Virus record (IMG/VR): IMGVR_UViG_3300025424_000296
Span: 1-64,000 of that record
Length of the DNA stretch: 64,000 nt
From: a virus
Reading direction: 5' to 3' (one strand)
Both the position numbers and the translations under genes were made by a program. Below the pieces are notes generated by a model. It was given only the letters and a program-made list of their open reading frames with translations. It was not told where the DNA came from and made no database searches. Positions within the stretch are counted from its first letter, which is position 1; each line of letters opens with the position of its first letter. This document shows, in pieces, positions 16,389 through 63,590 of the stretch.

Positions 16389-18254
16389 ATGACACGTACT
16401 ATCGGAATAGATCTTGGAACTACTAATAGCTGTGTAGCCATCATGGAAGGCGGCAAGGCAAAAGTAATCGAAAATGCAGAAGGCGCACGTACAACACCAA
16501 GTGTTGTAGCATGGACTGATCAGGAACAACTGGTCGGACAGCCTGCAAAGCGTCAAGCAATAACCAATCCAGAAAATACAGTATTTGAAGCTAAACGTTT
16601 AATTGGGCGTAGATTTGACGATCCAACTGTTAAGAAAGACATGAAGAGTTTATCATATCATGTGGTAAAAGCCGACAACGGCGATGCATGGGTAGACATC
16701 AAGGGCAAGAAATATAGCCCACAGGAAATTTCAGCACAAGTCTTACAAAAGATGAAGAAAACTGCTGAAGACTATCTTGGGTCACCTGTGACCAAAGCAG
16801 TTATCACAGTACCTGCATACTTTTCAGATTCTCAGCGTCAAGCAACCAAGGATGCTGGCAAGATTGCTGGATTAGAAGTCCTACGTATTATCAACGAGCC
16901 AACTGCGGCTGCTATGGCATTTGCTGTAGACAAGGGTGGTTCTGGTAAAGTTGTAGTAGTCGACGCTGGTGGTGGCACTCACGACGTTTCGGTGTTAGAT
17001 ATCGGTGACGGTGTCATCGAAGTGTTATCCACTAACGGTGATACACACCTTGGCGGTGCTGACTTTGACGAAGTTGTATTCCATTATCTAGTAGATGCAT
17101 TTAAAAAAGAAAACGGAATAGATCTTACCACAGATAAGATGGCAGTACAGCGTCTAAAAGAAGCTGCTGAAAAGGCCAAGATTGAACTTTCAAGTGCAAC
17201 TGAAACTGACATCAATTTACCATATATTACAGCAGATAGTTCTGGGCCAAAGCATCTTGTTACCAAACTAACTCGTGCTAAGTTTGACAGCCTTACAGAA
17301 GATCTTGTTAAACGCATCATTGCTCCGTGTAAGCGAGCTCTTAAGGATGCTAACCTAAAAGTTAGTGATATCAAAGAAGTGTTGTTAGTAGGTGGTACCA
17401 CTCGTATTCCTGCTGTTAAGACAGCTATTAAAGAGTACTTTGGTAAGGAGCCAAATAACTCTGTTAATCCAGACGAAGCAGTTGCTATTGGTGCTGCAAT
17501 TCAGGGAGGTGTTCTAGCCGGCGATGTCAAGGACGTGGTACTACTAGACGTTACACCATTAAGCCTTGGTATCGAAACATTGGGTGGTGTGTTTACTAGA
17601 CTAATTGATCGCAACACTACTATTCCTAGCAAAAAGAGCCAAGTGTTCTCTACTGCTGAAGACAATCAACCTGCTGTTACTATCCGTGTGTTCCAGGGTG
17701 AACGCGAAATGGCCAACGACAATAAGTTGTTGGGTCAGTTCAATTTGGAAGGTATTGCTCCGGCACGTCGTGGTATGCCTCAGATCGAAGTTACATTTGA
17801 TATTGATGCTAACGGCATTGTTAATGTCAGTGCTACCGACAAGGGAACTGGTAAGGAACAGAAGATTTCTATCCAGGCTAATGGCGGACTTGACGACAAG
17901 GATATCGAGCGTATGATCCGAGAAGCTGAAGAAAATGCTGAAGCTGACAAGAAAAAGCGTGAAATTGTGGATGCCCGTAACGGTGCTGATGCAATGATAG
18001 CCAGAGTTGAAAAAACCCTCGAAGAGGACGGTGATAAGATTGATGCAACTCTTAAAGCAGAGGTTGAGCAAGCTATTACTGATCTTAAAGCAGTTATGGA
18101 TAGCGAAGACGCAGAAGTTATACGTAATAATACCAATGCATTGGCTCAGGCTAGTATGAAAATTGGCGAAATCATGTATAAAGAAGCACAAGCCAACGCT
18201 GCTAAACCTGATGATGATGACATCATTGACGGAACAGCTGAAGAAGTAGCATAA
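16389..18254 (+). CDS. dnaK: Hsp70 chaperone DnaK
   Basis: [47 protein letters not shown]; full length. Confidence 0.98.
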
Positions 18255-22392: not shown

Positions 22393-22521
22393 ATGGCTAA
22401 AATCAATCCAGTTGCGAAAGCATTGGCTAGCGGTTCATGCCGTCCACAGGTTGTAAAAGCTCGCAAAGGTAAAGGCTCATATTCCCGTCGAGAACGATAC
22501 AGGCCGCTCGGGCGATACTGA
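22393..22521 (+). CDS. arfA: ArfA-like alternative ribosome rescue factor (42 aa, not in ORF track)
   Basis: MAKINPVAKALASGSCRPQVVKARKGKGSYSRRERYRPLGRY contains the ArfA signature N...AL.....R..V.K..KGKGSY.R; AGGAG RBS; TGATG coupling. Confidence 0.7.
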   Translation: MAKINPVAKALASGSCRPQVVKARKGKGSYSRRERYRPLGRY

Positions 22522-22979
22522 TGTTAGCTAATCGAGATAAACGTATCATGCAATTTATTAGGCGTCAAGCAATTGACGTTGAAAAGGTTAGTAATGCTCG
22601 TGTCGCTGCGGGTATTGCTATTAAAGGACAGTTGATCTCAACTGGCAAAAACAGCCGACGAACTCACCCCTTCCAGAAACAATTTAGTAAGAACGATCAT
22701 GCAATATTTTTTCATGCTGAAACTTGCGCTATTAGCAATAGCCTTAACCATATCCATAAAGACGATCTAAGACGTGCTACCTTGTTTATACATCGTGTTA
22801 AAATACCACTGCGATACAGTACAGAATGGGTAGATGGATTAGCTAAACCTTGTAATGGTTGCATGGCTGCTGTTGCTGCATTTAATATTCGCAGAGTTGT
22901 GTATAGTACAGATGTAAACCACAAATATGTGATATTAGAACGTAATAGTAAATGGTCTTGTGACGAGATAGGAGTATAA
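22521..22979 (+). CDS. Zn-dependent cytidine/adenosine deaminase superfamily protein
   Basis: HAE and PCxxC motifs. Confidence 0.85.
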   Translation: MLANRDKRIMQFIRRQAIDVEKVSNARVAAGIAIKGQLISTGKNSRRTHPFQKQFSKNDHAIFFHAETCAISNSLNHIHKDDLRRATLFIHRVKIPLRYSTEWVDGLAKPCNGCMAAVAAFNIRRVVYSTDVNHKYVILERNSKWSCDEIGV

Positions 22980-22980
22980 A

Positions 22981-23262
22981 ATGAAAGATCTAATAGCAAC
23001 TGTACGTGAGTATTCAAACAAAATCATAAACGATAGAGAACCTGTAGACATATTCGAAGCTCTACGCGACGAGGTAGAAGAGCTTGATGCAGAAATGTAC
23101 GGATATAGCCAAGGTGAAGATGGTATAGCAGGTGAAGCAATTGATGTTATTAATTGTGCGTTGGATTTGATCTTCAAAGCCAATCCAGAATGGACCAATG
23201 ATGATATCGTAGCATATGCTGAAAAGAAATGCCAGAAATGGTTAGAGAAAAATAGTGGTTGA
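22981..23262 (+). CDS. MazG-like NTP pyrophosphohydrolase
   Basis: DEVEEL...GEAIDVI..ALD (ExxE...ExxD). Confidence 0.75.
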   Translation: MKDLIATVREYSNKIINDREPVDIFEALRDEVEELDAEMYGYSQGEDGIAGEAIDVINCALDLIFKANPEWTNDDIVAYAEKKCQKWLEKNSG

Positions 23263-30151: not shown

Positions 30152-32086
30152 ATGACAAATATCTTTGACGACATTTTACAGGAAAAAAAGAAAATGCAAA
30201 GAGAGTCAATGAGTTTCATTGACTATCTTAAGCTGTGTAAGAAAGACTCATCAGTTTACGCTTCAGCTGCTGAACGCATGTTAGCAGCAATTGGTAAACC
30301 TACCATTGTTGATACCAGCAAAGACCCTAGACTGAGCAGAATCTTTCTCAATCGTACACTGCAAGTATATCCTGCGTTCAGCGATTTTTATGGTATGGAA
30401 GATACTATTGAACGTATTGTAGGATACTTTCGCCATGCTGCACAGGGTCTTGAAGAAAAGAAACAGATCCTTTACCTGCTGGGTCCAGTTGGCGGCGGCA
30501 AATCAAGTATTGCAGAACGTCTTAAAGAATTAATAACACGTTTACCATTTTATGTATTAACAGCAGAAGATGGAACACTGAGTCCAGTATTTGAAACTCC
30601 TCTTGGGGTGTTTGATGTTAATAGTCACGGTGAGAAATTAAAGAAGGATTATGGAATTGATCCTCGTTATCTTAATACCATTATGAGTCCATGGGCGATT
30701 AAAAGACTAGCAGAGTATGAGGGTGATGTTGGTCGTTTTCGTGTTACCAAAGTATGGCCAAATAAACTAGAACAAATTGGTGTTGTTAAGACCGAACCGG
30801 GCGACGATAACAACCAAGACATTTCAAGTCTAGTTGGTAAAACTAATATTCGCATGCTTGAACACTATGATCAAAATGATCCAGATAGTTACAGTTTCAG
30901 TGGTGCATTATGCCGTGGTAATCAGGGCATAATGGAGTTTGTTGAAATGTTCAAGGCTCCTATTAAGATGTTGCATCCGCTACTAACAGCTACACAAGAA
31001 GGCAATTATATCGGTACAGAAGGCATAAGTGCTATTCCATTCTCAGGTGTTGTCCTTGCACACTCCAACGAAGCAGAATGGCAAAGCTTTAAGAATAACA
31101 AGAACAATGAAGCATTTATTGATCGTGTTTATGTTGTTAAGGTTCCCTACTGTTTGCGTGTCAGTGATGAAGTTAATATCTATAAAAAAATGCTAGAACA
31201 CAGTAGTTTAAACAATGCCGTGTGCGCACCACAAACACTAGAAATGCTCAGCAAGTTCTGCGTATTAACTCGTTTAAATGAACATGAGAATAGCAGTCAA
31301 TACAGCAAGATGCGTGTATATGACGGTGAAGCAATTAAAGATGTAGATCCCAAAGCACGTAGTATACAAGAATATCGCGATGCTGCTGGTGTTGATGAAG
31401 GTATGGGTGGTATTAGTACACGTTTTGCATTCAAAGTTTTAAGTAAAACATTTAATTTTGATACAGCAGAAATAGCAGCAGATCCGGTTCATTTGATGTA
31501 TGTGCTTGAAGATAGCATACGCAGAGAACAGTTCAAAGACGATGTAGAAAACCGTTACATAGATTTTATCAAAGAGTATCTGGCACCCAAGTATGCGGAA
31601 TTCATTGGCAATGAGATTAGACAAAATTTCATTGAAAGTTATGCCGAATACGGTCAAAATTTATTTGATCAATATGTTGCGTATGCAGATGCGTGGATAC
31701 AAGAAATTGATTTTAAAGATCCAGATACAGGTAATATGTTTGATAGAGATATATTGAATAAGGAATTGGAGAAGATTGAAAAGCCAGCTGGCATTGCTAA
31801 TCCCAAAGACTTCCGTCACGAAGTTGTTAACTTTGTGTTAAGAGCTCGTGCAAAGAACGGCGGAGAGATATTGTGGTCAACTTATGAAAAATTACGCGAA
31901 GTCATTGAAAAGAAAATGTTTTCGACCTCAGATGACATGTTACCAGTTATATCTTTTGGTGCAAAAAGTAATTCTGAAATTCAATCAAAACACAGCGAAT
32001 TTGTAGATAGAATGAAAAATAACAGATATACTGAACGTCAAATTAAACGTTTAGTAGATTGGTTTATAAGAACTCAAAAAAGTTAA
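30152..32086 (+). CDS. yeaG: PrkA/YeaG AAA+ serine kinase family protein
   Basis: FYGME, QILYLLGPVGGGKSS, EPGD.NNQDISSLVGK, EFVEMFKAPIK.LHPLLTATQE. Confidence 0.97.
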   Translation: MTNIFDDILQEKKKMQRESMSFIDYLKLCKKDSSVYASAAERMLAAIGKPTIVDTSKDPRLSRIFLNRTLQVYPAFSDFYGMEDTIERIVGYFRHAAQGLEEKKQILYLLGPVGGGKSSIAERLKELITRLPFYVLTAEDGTLSPVFETPLGVFDVNSHGEKLKKDYGIDPRYLNTIMSPWAIKRLAEYEGDVGRFRVTKVWPNKLEQIGVVKTEPGDDNNQDISSLVGKTNIRMLEHYDQNDPDSYSFSGALCRGNQGIMEFVEMFKAPIKMLHPLLTATQEGNYIGTEGISAIPFSGVVLAHSNEAEWQSFKNNKNNEAFIDRVYVVKVPYCLRVSDEVNIYKKMLEHSSLNNAVCAPQTLEMLSKFCVLTRLNEHENSSQYSKMRVYDGEAIKDVDPKARSIQEYRDAAGVDEGMGGISTRFAFKVLSKTFNFDTAEIAADPVHLMYVLEDSIRREQFKDDVENRYIDFIKEYLAPKYAEFIGNEIRQNFIESYAEYGQNLFDQYVAYADAWIQEIDFKDPDTGNMFDRDILNKELEKIEKPAGIANPKDFRHEVVNFVLRARAKNGGEILWSTYEKLREVIEKKMFSTSDDMLPVISFGAKSNSEIQSKHSEFVDRMKNNRYTERQIKRLVDWFIRTQKS

Positions 32087-32087
32087 A

Positions 32088-33059
32088 ATGAATTACATAG
32101 AACATTATAATAAATTAATTTTGCGAGGGAAAACCAGAGGTATTAAAAAAAGCTCTACGGTATATTATGAATTACATCATATAGTCCCTAAATGTTTAGG
32201 TGGCACTAATAGTGATTCAAATCTTGTTTTATTAACACCAGAAGAACATTTTATTGCACATAAGTTATTGGTTAAAATTTATCCTAATAAAGGTAAATTA
32301 ATCTATGCAGTTAATATGATGTGTGTAGGCAGAAATAATAAAATGTATGGTTGGCTTAAAAAGAAACTTCAGCAGGTGTTGAAAGATGATAAAGAAAGAT
32401 CTGACAAAATTAGTAAATCTTTAACTGGTAGACATGTACCAGATTATATAGGAAGAAAAATTTCTAAATCTAATAAAGGTAGGATAATATCACAGTCAAC
32501 AAGAGAGAAAATATCAAATAGTACTAAAGGTGTTTCTAAACCAACTAACTTTGGTAAAAAAATTAGTGCCAGATTAAAAGGTAGAAAACATAATGATTTA
32601 CATCATAAAAAAGTTATAGATAGTAAATTAAGAAATGGTACATTACTGCAATCAAAATCTACAAAAGAAAAAATATCTAATAGCTTATCTAAATTGAAAT
32701 GGTATAATAATGGGACAACCAACATAAGATCGTCTGTTAATCCAGGATGTGATTATGTACCTGGAAGACTGCCAATAGCAAAAAAGAAAAAAATAAATCA
32801 AAAATATGATAAGGTTATTTTAGATACATCAACACTTCCTAAGTTCAAATATGATCATTACAAAAAATCTAACAACGGCAAACGAAATGGTGCATGGAAA
32901 GGGTATATTGTTACCCCTGATGGAATTTTTGAATCATCTATGCAGGCAGCTATATATTATAGCCTTACAGACGGTACTATAAGAAATAGATGTTTAAGTG
33001 ATAATCCAAAATTTAAAGAATGGGTACAACTTACTAATTTAGGTAATGAAAATGAGTGA
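32088..33059 (+). mobile_element. Free-standing HNH homing endonuclease inside the yeaG-yeaH operon
   Basis: YELHHIVPKCLGG.N..SNLV.LTPEEHFIAH; NUMOD3 repeats, WYNNG, C-terminal NUMOD1-like HTH. Confidence 0.9.
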
Positions 33060-34338
33060 TTACCACATAATCGACCAACGTTCGAATCCTAAGGGTAAGA
33101 ACTTACCAAATCGTCAAAAGTTCCTTAAGAAGGTGCGCAAGCAGCTAACCGATCAGGTTAGGGGTGCCATTGGCAAACGTAAAATAACCGATAGCCGCGG
33201 AGAAGATATCAAAGTACCGGTAGACGGAATAAATGAACCCAGCTTTGATTATGACAGAACTACCGGCGAATGGGAAAGAATACTTCCTGGTAATAAAAAC
33301 TTCAGTGTGGGTGATCGAGTTAAAAAACCACCTAGCAGTGGAGGCAAAGGTGGCGGAAGCGGGTCTGGTGGTAACGGCGGTGAAGGTCAGGACGATTTCC
33401 GCTTTACTATAACCCGAGAAGAATATTTGGATATTGTGTTCGAAGATCTGGAATTGCCAGATATGATCAAACGTACCGAAAAGGCAGCTACAATATGGCA
33501 TAAGATACGTGCTGGATTTAAAACAGATGGCAACCCCAGTCAACTAGATCTTGTACGTAGCATGAAGAACAGTTTAGGACGTAGACTAGCACTACGCAAA
33601 CCGTTAGAACGCAAGGTTAATGAGATACAGTCGTTATTAGAGGACAGTGATAATCCAGAACTACTCTTAGAAGAAATTGAAAAGCTTCAGAAGAAACGCA
33701 GTAGTATTCCCTGGGTTGATCCTATGGACCTACGTTATCGTAGATTTGATAAGAACCCTGTGCCTAATAGTCAAGCAGTGATGTTTTGCTTGATGGATGT
33801 TAGTGGCAGTATGGGTCAACATGAAAAAGATATAGCCAAGCGATTTTATTTGTTGTTGTATTTGTTCCTGCAAAGAAAATATGAAAAGGTACAATTGGTA
33901 TTTGTACGTCACACAGAAGATGCTCGAGAAGTAGACGAAGATGAGTTTTTCAACAGTCAGGAAACAGGCGGAACTGTTGTAAGTAGTGGATTAGAATTGG
34001 TAAACAATATCATAAAAGAACGCTATCCGTTAGATGCCTGGAACATATATGTGGTGCAAGCCAGCGACGGTGATAATTATAGTCACGACAATCAGGTCTG
34101 TACAGAATTGTTAAATGAACTACTTCCCAAGGTTCAATATTATGTTTATGCTGAAGTCAAAAATTATAATAATTTGCGAGAAATATTCATGGTGAACCCC
34201 CGACATTCCGGTCTTTGGGAAATTATGAACAATCTGATGCCTCGTTATGAACAACTGGTGAGTGTCCAATTAACCGACGTAGAAAGTGTAGTACCCATAT
34301 TCAGAAGTGTATTTGCCCGGGAGAAGACCAATGGTTAA
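33046..34338 (+). CDS. yeaH: YeaH/YhbH (DUF444) vWA-like protein
   Basis: K...NRQKFL, Gly-rich linker, FEDLELP, AVMFCLMDVSGSM, ETGGT.VSS, QASDGDN. Confidence 0.95.
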   Translation: MKMSDYHIIDQRSNPKGKNLPNRQKFLKKVRKQLTDQVRGAIGKRKITDSRGEDIKVPVDGINEPSFDYDRTTGEWERILPGNKNFSVGDRVKKPPSSGGKGGGSGSGGNGGEGQDDFRFTITREEYLDIVFEDLELPDMIKRTEKAATIWHKIRAGFKTDGNPSQLDLVRSMKNSLGRRLALRKPLERKVNEIQSLLEDSDNPELLLEEIEKLQKKRSSIPWVDPMDLRYRRFDKNPVPNSQAVMFCLMDVSGSMGQHEKDIAKRFYLLLYLFLQRKYEKVQLVFVRHTEDAREVDEDEFFNSQETGGTVVSSGLELVNNIIKERYPLDAWNIYVVQASDGDNYSHDNQVCTELLNELLPKVQYYVYAEVKNYNNLREIFMVNPRHSGLWEIMNNLMPRYEQLVSVQLTDVESVVPIFRSVFAREKTNG

Positions 34339-35809
34339 ACCTCTGTTCACAGGTTCTGAATGGGATTTTGAGTTATTAGACCGAGCAATGCGCGAGTGTG
34401 GCATTATAGCTAAAGAAGAATTAAGACTTGATACTTATAAAAATCAAATATGTGTAGTTAGTTCAGAACAAATGCTAGATGCTTATGCCAGCACAGGGCT
34501 TCCGGTTATGTATAAACATTGGAGTTTCGGTAAGAAATTCAGCCGAGAACGAGATCTATATCAAAAAGGAAAAAGAGGTCTTGCATATGAATTGGTATTA
34601 AACCTAGACCCTTGTATCAATTATTTAATGGAAGAGAATACAGCTTGTACTCAGGTCCTTGTTATTGCACATGCGGCGTATGGACACTGTCACGTGTTCA
34701 AAAACAATTATATGTTCAAGCAATGGACAGAAGCCGATTCAATGTTAGACTATCTAATCTTTGCACGTAATTATATAGTGCAATGCGAAGAACATTATGG
34801 TGAAGAAGCTGTTGAAGCGACATTAGATAGTGCTCATGCATTGATGATGAACGGTATTGATCGTTACAAGCGCCCACGTAAATTGTCCATGGTTGAAGAA
34901 CAGTTAAGACAGAAAGAGCGTACTGAATATCTTGAACGCACCGTTAACGATCTATGGCGTACATTACCCAGGACAGATAATGAAGATAACACTAATGAAG
35001 GTTATAAATTCCCAGCACAACCAGAAGAAAATATACTCTATTTCTTAGAAAAGAATAGCCCTGTATTAGAACCATGGCAGAGAGAAATACTTCGCATAGT
35101 ACGCAAACTTGCACAGTATTTCTATCCACAGTATCTTACCAAAATGTTAAACGAAGGCTGGGCCAGTTTTACACACTATTATATCATGAATAGATTACAT
35201 GATAAAGGCCTATTAACTGATGGTGCAATGTTAGAGTTCTTGAAATTACACACATCTGTACTTTATCAACCCGAGTACGATAGTCCATATTTCAGCGGGT
35301 TAAATCCCTACTATCTTGGCTTTGAAATATTCATGGACATCAAAAGAATGTGTGAAAATCCTGACGATGAGGATCGAGAACTATTCCCTGATATTGCGGG
35401 AAGTAACTGGGTTGATACCTGCTTAGATGCTGTGGCAAATTATCGCGATGAGAGTTTTGTACATCAATTCCTAAGTCCCAAAGTTGTACGCAAAATGAAA
35501 TTGTTCAAGGTTGTAGATGACAGCAGAGAAGATCATTTCGTGATTGATGCTATTCAAAACCGAGAAGGGTTCAAAGATATTCGCAGTAGACTAGCTCGTA
35601 GTTATGAGCTAGATGATTGGTGCCCTAAGGTAGAAGTATCTAATGCTGATATCAAAGGCGATAGAACATTAACATTAACCTATTACAGGGAGCGCGGTCG
35701 TAATATTGGAGGTAGCTGGCAGGTTATGCTATCTCATGTCCAAAGTCTATGGGGACATAAAGTCAAATTGGTTACTGCTAGAGGTAATACCATTGGCGAA
35801 ATAGCCTAA
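34331..35809 (+). CDS. spoVR: SpoVR/YcgB family protein
   Basis: EQMLDAYAS.GLP..Y.HWSFGK, GLAYELV, IAHA.YGH, YFYPQ..TK..NEGWASF.H. Confidence 0.95.
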   Translation: MVKPLFTGSEWDFELLDRAMRECGIIAKEELRLDTYKNQICVVSSEQMLDAYASTGLPVMYKHWSFGKKFSRERDLYQKGKRGLAYELVLNLDPCINYLMEENTACTQVLVIAHAAYGHCHVFKNNYMFKQWTEADSMLDYLIFARNYIVQCEEHYGEEAVEATLDSAHALMMNGIDRYKRPRKLSMVEEQLRQKERTEYLERTVNDLWRTLPRTDNEDNTNEGYKFPAQPEENILYFLEKNSPVLEPWQREILRIVRKLAQYFYPQYLTKMLNEGWASFTHYYIMNRLHDKGLLTDGAMLEFLKLHTSVLYQPEYDSPYFSGLNPYYLGFEIFMDIKRMCENPDDEDRELFPDIAGSNWVDTCLDAVANYRDESFVHQFLSPKVVRKMKLFKVVDDSREDHFVIDAIQNREGFKDIRSRLARSYELDDWCPKVEVSNADIKGDRTLTLTYYRERGRNIGGSWQVMLSHVQSLWGHKVKLVTARGNTIGEIA

Positions 35810-55225: not shown

Positions 55226-55272
55226 GGTTAACAGAGTTTTAAAAGATGCTAGTATATATGAGTAATAAATGT

Positions 55273-55352
55273 TTCCTTGTAGCTCAGTTGGTAAAGTAGT
55301 GACTGTTAATCACTTAATCACTTAGTCGTTGGTTCGAGTCCAACCGGGGGAG
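55273..55352 (+). pseudogene. Degenerate tRNA-Asn(GUU)
   Basis: Anticodon arm AGTGA-CTGTTAA-TCACT, T-arm GTTGG-TTCGAGT-CCAAC; 8-nt duplication TTAATCAC, D-stem mismatch, three G:U in the acceptor, no CCA. Confidence 0.7.
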
Positions 55353-55412
55353 ACAAAATTAAATAATTTTGTGATTTGACTCAGTTACGTACATCACTTA
55401 TAATCATTGATT

Positions 55413-62110: not shown

Positions 62111-62187
62111 GCTCCCATAGATTACGTTGGTTAGATCGTTGCCCTTTCACGGCAAAGAACCCGGATCGTCGCCGGGTGGGAGCACCA
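62111..62187 (+). tRNA. tRNA-Glu(UUC), non-canonical T-loop
   Basis: GCTCCCA/TGGGAGC, TTGCC-CTTTCAC-GGCAA, CCCGG-ATCGTCG-CCGGG, ACCA. Confidence 0.9.
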
Positions 62188-63176: not shown

Positions 63177-63368
63177 ATGAATAAGATTTTAATCACACTA
63201 ATAGTATCACTATTTGCTACATCTGTTGTGGCACTAACCGTCATACCGGCAGCAGTAAAAACTTCAAATGATGTTGCAGTTTCCAAACCAGCTGCTAAAT
63301 CCCACACAGGAACTTGGTTGCCACCAAAAGAAATACAAGACAAGGTTGCAAAAGAAAAACAAAAATAA
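63177..63368 (+). CDS. Small secreted protein
   Basis: AGGAGG RBS; signal peptide. Confidence 0.6.
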   Translation: MNKILITLIVSLFATSVVALTVIPAAVKTSNDVAVSKPAAKSHTGTWLPPKEIQDKVAKEKQK

Positions 63369-63382
63369 TATACTTTAAAGAT

Positions 63383-63458
63383 GCTGGTGTAGCTCAGTTG
63401 ATAGAGCGCGGCATTAGTAATGCCGATGTCGGGAGTTTGAACCTCTCCACCAGCACCA
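63383..63458 (+). tRNA. tRNA-Thr(AGU)
   Basis: GCTGGTG/CACCAGC, CGGCA-TTAGTAA-TGCCG, GGGAG-TTTGAAC-CTCTC, ACCA. Confidence 0.88.
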
Positions 63459-63463
63459 CCTTA

Positions 63464-63590
63464 GCCCTTGTAGCCCAACTGGCAGAGGCAGGAGACTTAC
63501 GAGAAAGGGTTAAAGCCCATAACGGTGCGATTCCGGAATCTCGGAGATAAAATCTCCCAAGTATCAGTTCGAATCTGATCAAGGGCACCA
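63464..63590 (+). tRNA. tRNA-Leu(UAA)-like gene with a 50-nt anticodon-loop insertion (Val UAC if spliced in another register)
   Basis: GCCCTTG/CAAGGGC-ACCA, D-arm GCC/GGC, anticodon stem GGAGA/TCTCC enclosing 57 nt, T-arm ATCAG-TTCGAAT-CTGAT. Confidence 0.85.

Follow-up and report, generated by a model that had tools for sequence, protein, structure and literature searches.

A threonine tRNA gene with the anticodon AGT in a phage contig and a class of similar genes in uncultured viral sequences

The window analyzed here is a 64-kb stretch of DNA, the first part of a 113,210-bp IMG/VR virus record with a GC content of 37.5%. CheckV estimates the completeness of that record at 28%, from which the whole phage genome should measure several hundred kb. 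At positions 63383..63458 of the window, on the plus strand, lies a 76-nt tRNA-Thr gene with the anticodon AGT and an encoded CCA end. It was called by ARAGORN and scores 63.4 bits with Rfam family RF00005, whose gathering score is 29; this is the third-best value among the tRNAs of this phage. Its minimum free energy fold is a cloverleaf (−30.3 kcal/mol, z = −3.3). The acceptor stem reads GCTGGTG/CACCAGC and is followed by A73 and then CCA. All four stems are fully paired, with a single G-U pair in the T stem, and the variable loop is ATGTC. The anticodon A34-G35-T36 (63416..63418, + strand, with A34 at 63416) sits in the loop TTAGTAA, both in the sequence and in the ARAGORN drawing. A first-pass annotation of this DNA had described a tRNA-Thr with a TT-AGT-AA loop and intact stems at this position, and the gene call, the Rfam score and the fold all confirm that description. 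The identity set of E. coli threonyl-tRNA synthetase (ThrRS) consists of G1:C72, C2:G71, G35 and U36. Since all of these elements are present in the sequence, charging by the ThrRS of the host is expected. Judged by these features, the gene is almost certainly functional.

The D-loop of the tRNA is AGTTGATA, in which G18 (63400) is followed by A19 (63401..63401, + strand) instead of the usual G19. In the T-loop, TTTGAAC, the positions T54, T55 and T56 are occupied by T, and T56 (63438..63438, + strand), the tertiary partner of A19, replaces the usual C56. The elongator elbow elements G18, T54 and T55 are therefore present, with A19:U56 substituting for G19:C56. We scanned IMG/VR for the exact A19-bearing D-arm, TAGCTCAGTTGATAGAGC, which occurs in at least 119 stretches, and examined 80 loci among the matches listed. 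T56 was found in 72 of the 74 viral tRNAs with this D-arm, whereas 15 of the remaining 318 tRNAs at these loci have it. The association also holds in cells: with one genome per prokaryote species, and among the matches listed, 107 of 108 tRNAs with the A19 D-arm carry T56, and the carriers are mostly tRNA-Gly(UCC/GCC) and tRNA-Ala(CGC). Two orthologous Thr(AGT) genes (L228:2287-2360 and L169:9734-9807, minus strand) differ only at positions 19 (G/A), 56 (C/T) and 59 (G/A). They lie on two syntenic phage contigs, one of 412 kb and the other of 409 kb, with about 90% identity in the flanks, and their difference reads as a natural compensatory swap of the elbow pair.

The viral and cellular covariation and this swap show that A19:U56 truly replaces G19:C56 at the elbow, and does so isosterically. 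Such covariation argues for a working tRNA. The earlier proposal that the paired changes reflect selection and not decay is thus supported by the counts and by the intactness of the gene. The suggestion that the pair is something special did not survive, as it is ordinary and common in bacterial tRNA-Gly. We also considered A19:U56 as a phage-specific mark and rejected the idea on the same grounds. In genome loci L412-L531, the pair is native to chromosomal tRNA-Gly(UCC/GCC) and tRNA-Ala(CGC) of Bacteroidales, Clostridia, Opitutae and Bdellovibrionota. A literature search for A19:U56 in phage tRNAs returned nothing specific.

ARAGORN found seven tRNA genes in the 113,210-bp record: Met(CAT), Asn(GTT), Glu(TTC), Ile(GAT), Thr(AGT), Leu(TAA) and Cys(GCA). 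The tRNA-Leu(TAA) gene (63464..63590, + strand) begins 5 nt downstream of the Thr(AGT) gene, and for that reason the two are probably on one transcript. Its anticodon loop holds an insertion of 50-53 nt, detected by ARAGORN with introns allowed and by Rfam (44 bits, 53-nt insert). The insertion is far below the size of a group I intron, and the stems and CCA end of the tRNA are all intact. On the other side, a sigma-70-like promoter match, TTGCAA-17-TATACT (63346..63374, + strand), stops 9 nt upstream of the Thr(AGT) gene; with 9 of 12 positions matching in a consensus scan, it is weak evidence. Three of the other tRNA genes, all on the plus strand, are unusual in form. The 83-nt tRNA-Asn(GTT) at 55272-55354 (40 bits) combines a weakly paired acceptor with an additional stem-loop in its variable region. 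Both tRNA-Glu(TTC), at 62111-62187, and tRNA-Cys(GCA), at record positions 67333-67407, have a non-canonical T-loop that lacks the usual TTC. The tRNA-Glu(TTC) gene was absent from the window-wide Rfam search at the gathering score, yet reached 45 bits in the genome search.

The phage encodes a DnaK (16389-18254, + strand) with about 63% identity to the DnaK of gammaproteobacteria. Other genes include rIIA and one for a halogenase-like protein. The nearest named relatives are the huge metagenomic phages LR756502, LR745206 and LR756504 (630-640 kb) and Ralstonia phage RsoM2USA, with which our phage has a PrkA/YeaG-YeaH-SpoVR-like gene set (30152-35809, + strand) in common at 50-61% identity. 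Despite the common PrkA/SpoVR-like genes, an orthologous tRNA is absent from all four; the Thr tRNAs of RsoM2USA are Thr(TGT) and Thr(GGT). Because the sequence covers only 28% of the estimated genome, Thr(UGU) or Thr(GGU) may be encoded elsewhere in our phage. A flanking 255-aa ORF had no homologue in IMG/VR, and its sole match in a set of 5.8 billion proteins was itself, on nine contigs. The halogenase-like neighbor led to 80 loci at about 40% identity, none of which contained Thr(AGT).

To place the gene among viral tRNAs, we searched IMG/VR with a class pattern made up of the D-arm and anticodon loop, TAGCTCAGTTGRTAGAGC-N6-YTAGTAA. It occurs in at least 119 stretches, and ARAGORN called tRNA-Thr(agt) in all 116 loci examined. 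The first-pass annotation had implied that A34 Thr tRNAs are rare, and in phages this does not hold. The same D-arm pattern with G34 (anticodon GGT) was found in 58 IMG/VR stretches. When only genes that encode CCA are counted, the figures among the matches listed are 102 for AGT and 35 for GGT. Together with the gene of our phage, the AGT matches listed give 80 distinct Thr(AGT) sequences, with a median pairwise identity of 73%. Across the 80, G1:C72, C2:G71 and the YU-AGU-AA loop show virtually no variation. Pairing at the stem positions is kept in 89-100% of sequences, and a single position can show as many as six pair types. Covariation of this kind is the signature of a functional family maintained by selection. 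Within the arrays, AGT is accompanied by TGT in 59 of the 116 loci and almost never by GGT. Viral arrays L097-L215 also hold candidates for other A-first anticodons, namely Gly(ACC), Phe(AAA), His(ATG), Pro(AGG), Leu(AAG), Ser(AGA), Ile(AAT) and Ala(AGC).

Part of the class is not from phages. An AGT anticodon is normal for the Thr tRNA of giant eukaryotic viruses, and some of the Thr(AGT) contigs in IMG/VR are such viruses, a few of them labelled as giant-virus bins. CCA is encoded in 102 of the 116 Thr(AGT) genes, which fits phage genes rather than those of eukaryotic viruses. Several ORFs flanking Thr(AGT) genes match phage families, for example a DnaB-like helicase and a homing endonuclease. 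A preprint from 2026 states that tRNAs with ANN anticodons for four-codon boxes, except Arg(ACG), are absent from bacteriophages (bioRxiv 10.64898/2026.05.15.725136). The stretches found here, at least 119 in number, do not agree with that statement. Among cultured phages, a BLAST search of 50,697 phage records with a common Thr(AGT) tRNA and a whole array, which is an indirect search, found no identical anticodon arm, and the three best matches that we fetched were all TGT. The literature likewise yielded nothing specific on phage Thr(AGT). We put at about an even chance the broader proposition that uncultured phages systematically favor A34 over G34 in the tRNA-Thr that reads ACY codons, the opposite of bacteria.

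Within this class, the gene in our window shares the D-arm TAGCTCAGTTGRTAGAGC, the YTAGTAA loop, G1:C72, C2:G71, the A73 of most members and the CCA end, as well as a place among contigs rich in ACT and poor in ACC codons. It differs in that A19:U56 occurs in only 4 of the 80 members and in that its best match among those listed, L246, is just 83% identical; that is also the nearest AGT gene to this tRNA. All exact matches to its anticodon arm in IMG/VR are TGT. A scan of JGI metagenomes that allowed any base at position 34 returned only Thr(TGT) kin, about 84% identical and with A19:U56. From these comparisons, our AGT copy may be the product of a recent U34-to-A change. The relatives would also suit a less constructive account, in which the AGU anticodon has no selected function and stems either from an assembly error or from a recent U34-to-A mutation, neutral or slightly deleterious, in a Thr(UGU) gene. 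We think this very improbable. The remainder of the gene is flawless by Rfam score and fold, AGT has been kept in about 80 diverged viral sequences, and the presence of the flanking 255-aa ORF on nine contigs indicates that the phage has been assembled repeatedly.

Codon use offers a reason why a phage might carry such a tRNA. Threonine is the commonest amino acid of this phage (8.1% of residues), and its codons are ACA (44%), ACT (37%), ACC (15%) and ACG (4%). The ten most Thr-rich ORFs encode fibre-like proteins with up to 19.5% Thr. It had been proposed that the tRNA serves the ACT codons of these fibre genes. The ACT role is consistent with the ACT and ACC shares of this phage and with the trend across viral contigs described below. 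The special link to fibre genes is not: the fibre-like Thr-rich ORFs prefer ACA and are not enriched in ACT (35%, versus 38% elsewhere), so we rejected it.

Across viral contigs, the choice of anticodon follows codon use. With ORFs called crudely in flanks of roughly 10 kb, statistics that ignore relatedness, and AGT loci taken from the matches listed, the median ACT share was 0.40 in AGT loci versus 0.25 in GGT loci (Mann-Whitney p = 2e-10), and the median ACC share was 0.14 versus 0.27 (Mann-Whitney p = 1e-9). By the same crude procedure, the ACT share of 0.40 in AGT loci compares with 0.33 in loci with TGT only (p = 0.003), and this difference of 0.07 persists after adjustment for GC content. 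The pattern fits a choice of A34 where U-ending Thr codons prevail and of G34 where C-ending ones prevail, as far as these sequence counts go.

If A34 were converted to inosine, either by the TadA of the host or by a phage deaminase of the CDA family, the tRNA would read ACU, ACC and ACA, which together make up 96% of the Thr codons of this phage. The phage does encode a zinc deaminase of 152 aa with HAE and PCxxC motifs (22521-22979, + strand), a member of a virus-only family with the further conserved motifs THPF, RVK and G-LAKPC-GC and 489 relatives in IMG/VR. It has 44 homologues in a large protein set, some of them named automatically as TadA and others as dCMP deaminase. Profile searches against the PDB place it as near to TadA (S. 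aureus 2b3j, E = 1.7e-4) as to dCMP deaminases (3-6e-4). The AlphaFold model (pLDDT 86.7) is about equally similar to all CDA folds in Foldseek (TM about 0.5). Its ESM Atlas neighbors are virus-only clusters, and its best PHROG match is a dCMP deaminase. The next gene after it, which it abuts, encodes a MazG-like pyrophosphatase (22981-23262, + strand).

A partnership between this deaminase and the tRNA was suggested by local tblastn, which found homologues with 40-48% identity in 10 of the 116 Thr(AGT) loci, where they end tRNA arrays that include Arg(ACG). In one locus (L224), about 130 nt separate the deaminase from Thr(AGT). The reciprocal test gave a different picture: among the best 80 of the 489 deaminase loci, none had Thr(AGT) within 10 kb, and 48 had no tRNA at all. 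Arrays of the same gene order beside the deaminase hold Thr(TGT) or Thr(CGT) instead. Over whole records, the deaminase is present anywhere in only 7 of 48 Thr(AGT) records, and complete Thr(AGT) phages of 412 kb and 240 kb have no CDA-family gene. In our phage, the deaminase lies 40 kb from the tRNA. Because the reciprocal and whole-record tests removed the link, we take the two genes to occur independently, and we rejected the phage deaminase as the partner that converts A34 to inosine. Its adjacency to arrays is inherited gene order in one phage group. In one phage group, the deaminase directly follows tRNA-Gly(TCC), the last gene of arrays of 24-27 tRNAs. The deaminase is no obligatory partner of Thr(AGT), and nucleotides are its more likely substrate.

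Editing by the host would face a separate obstacle. The substrate loop of TadA is reportedly of the tRNA-Arg(ACG) type, U33-A34-C35-G36, as work by Wolf in 2002 and Losey in 2006 is said to have found. The Thr(AGT) loop, U33-A34-G35-U36-A37, does not conform to that type, as both G35 and U36 differ. An engineered Thr-tRNA(AGU) in E. coli was left unmodified and was functional all the same (bioRxiv 10.64898/2026.05.15.725136). Some bacteria do edit A34 in tRNAs other than Arg (Rafels-Ybern 2019 and Wulff 2024, as cited in that preprint). The G35/U36 loop and the E. coli result favor an unmodified base, and A34 is probably unmodified in a host with an ordinary TadA. Overall, we regard a role for inosine in this tRNA as unlikely.

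The excess of AGT genes, at least twofold over GGT genes with this D-arm, could also be viewed in terms of defense. An A34 isoacceptor might serve mainly to escape a host toxin or defense system that attacks tRNA-Thr(GGU), or another Thr tRNA of the host, through its anticodon loop. Thr decoding would then continue during infection, and such a function is compatible with codon matching. There are precedents for both halves of this idea. Phage tRNAs with changed anticodon loops that resist anticodon nucleases are documented (eLife 2023, PMC10264068), and there is a type VI toxin whose modification is confined to tRNA-Thr(GGU) in its charged form (PMC13617354). Like the T5-like resistant tRNAs of the first report (PMC10264068), our gene is a phage isoacceptor whose anticodon loop is unlike that of the host; unlike them, it is changed in the anticodon itself and tracks codon use. 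We found no Thr-specific antiphage nuclease in the literature and identified no such system here, and nothing in the 64-kb window points to a defense context. Moreover, codon matching is the simpler explanation of the association with ACT and ACC. We know of no cognate nuclease for a Thr(AGU) phage tRNA. Nuclease evasion, which the first-pass annotation had raised, is thus plausible and is not needed to explain the data; as the main function of this tRNA, we consider it improbable, and more so than inosine.

Taken as a single gene, the tRNA adds one case to a type, tRNA-Thr(AGU), already described in Mollicutes and in a few Firmicute genera. In eukaryotes, tRNA-Thr(AGU) is the standard I34 isoacceptor, made by ADAT2/3. 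Our gene shares with that tRNA, and with tRNA-Arg(ACG) and its enzyme TadA, an A34 in a four-codon box. In contrast to tRNA-Arg(ACG), it has G35 and U36 in place of C35 and G36, and no dedicated deaminase is linked to it. The closest parallel among cellular tRNAs is that of Mycoplasma capricolum and other Mollicutes (Andachi 1987, as cited in bioRxiv 10.64898/2026.05.15.725136). There too, a bacterial-type Thr body carries A34-G35-U36 in an AT-rich genome, with A34 in place of the G34 of other bacteria. According to the same preprint's account, A34 of the Mycoplasma tRNA was reported to be unmodified. Our tRNA differs from the Mollicute type in being phage-encoded, in acting against a background of host tRNAs, in its A19:U56 pair and in its encoded CCA.

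The reading that we prefer, and consider probable, is that the gene encodes a functional phage tRNA-Thr(AGU) that is charged by the host and reads ACU in place of a GGU isoacceptor, supplying an ACU-rich proteome. It would belong to a large, varied class of phage Thr(AGU) tRNAs that has received little recognition, and its A19:U56 pair would be isosteric and have no special role. In such a scheme, the tRNA would be expressed and charged by host ThrRS, and ACU would be read through a Watson-Crick pair between A34 and U. The tRNA would fill the place of the bacterial tRNA-Thr(GGU) and feed the Thr-rich, AT-rich proteome of a phage in which ACU is common and ACC rare. An unmodified A34 may also weakly read other ACN codons, as in Mycoplasma.

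The class-level AGU pattern is more interesting than the single gene. The comparison across viral contigs adds that Thr(AGU) is widespread among uncultured phages and conserved there, that it outnumbers Thr(GGU) with this D-arm and that it tracks ACU-rich, ACC-poor codon use. For annotators, this means that A34 Thr genes should not be discarded as errors, and that an A34 Thr tRNA should not be paired with an adjacent zinc deaminase unless there is evidence for it. To our knowledge, bacteria have almost no A-first anticodons apart from Arg(ACG). Phages are a source of many natural A34 tRNAs for tests of decoding, modification and fitness. If the pattern persists after exclusion of eukaryotic viruses and correction for relatedness, phages would serve as a natural experiment on the avoidance of A-first anticodons by cells. 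Possible answers would then include efficient decoding by unmodified A34, a relaxed specificity of host TadA, and escape from toxins that target the GGU isoacceptor.
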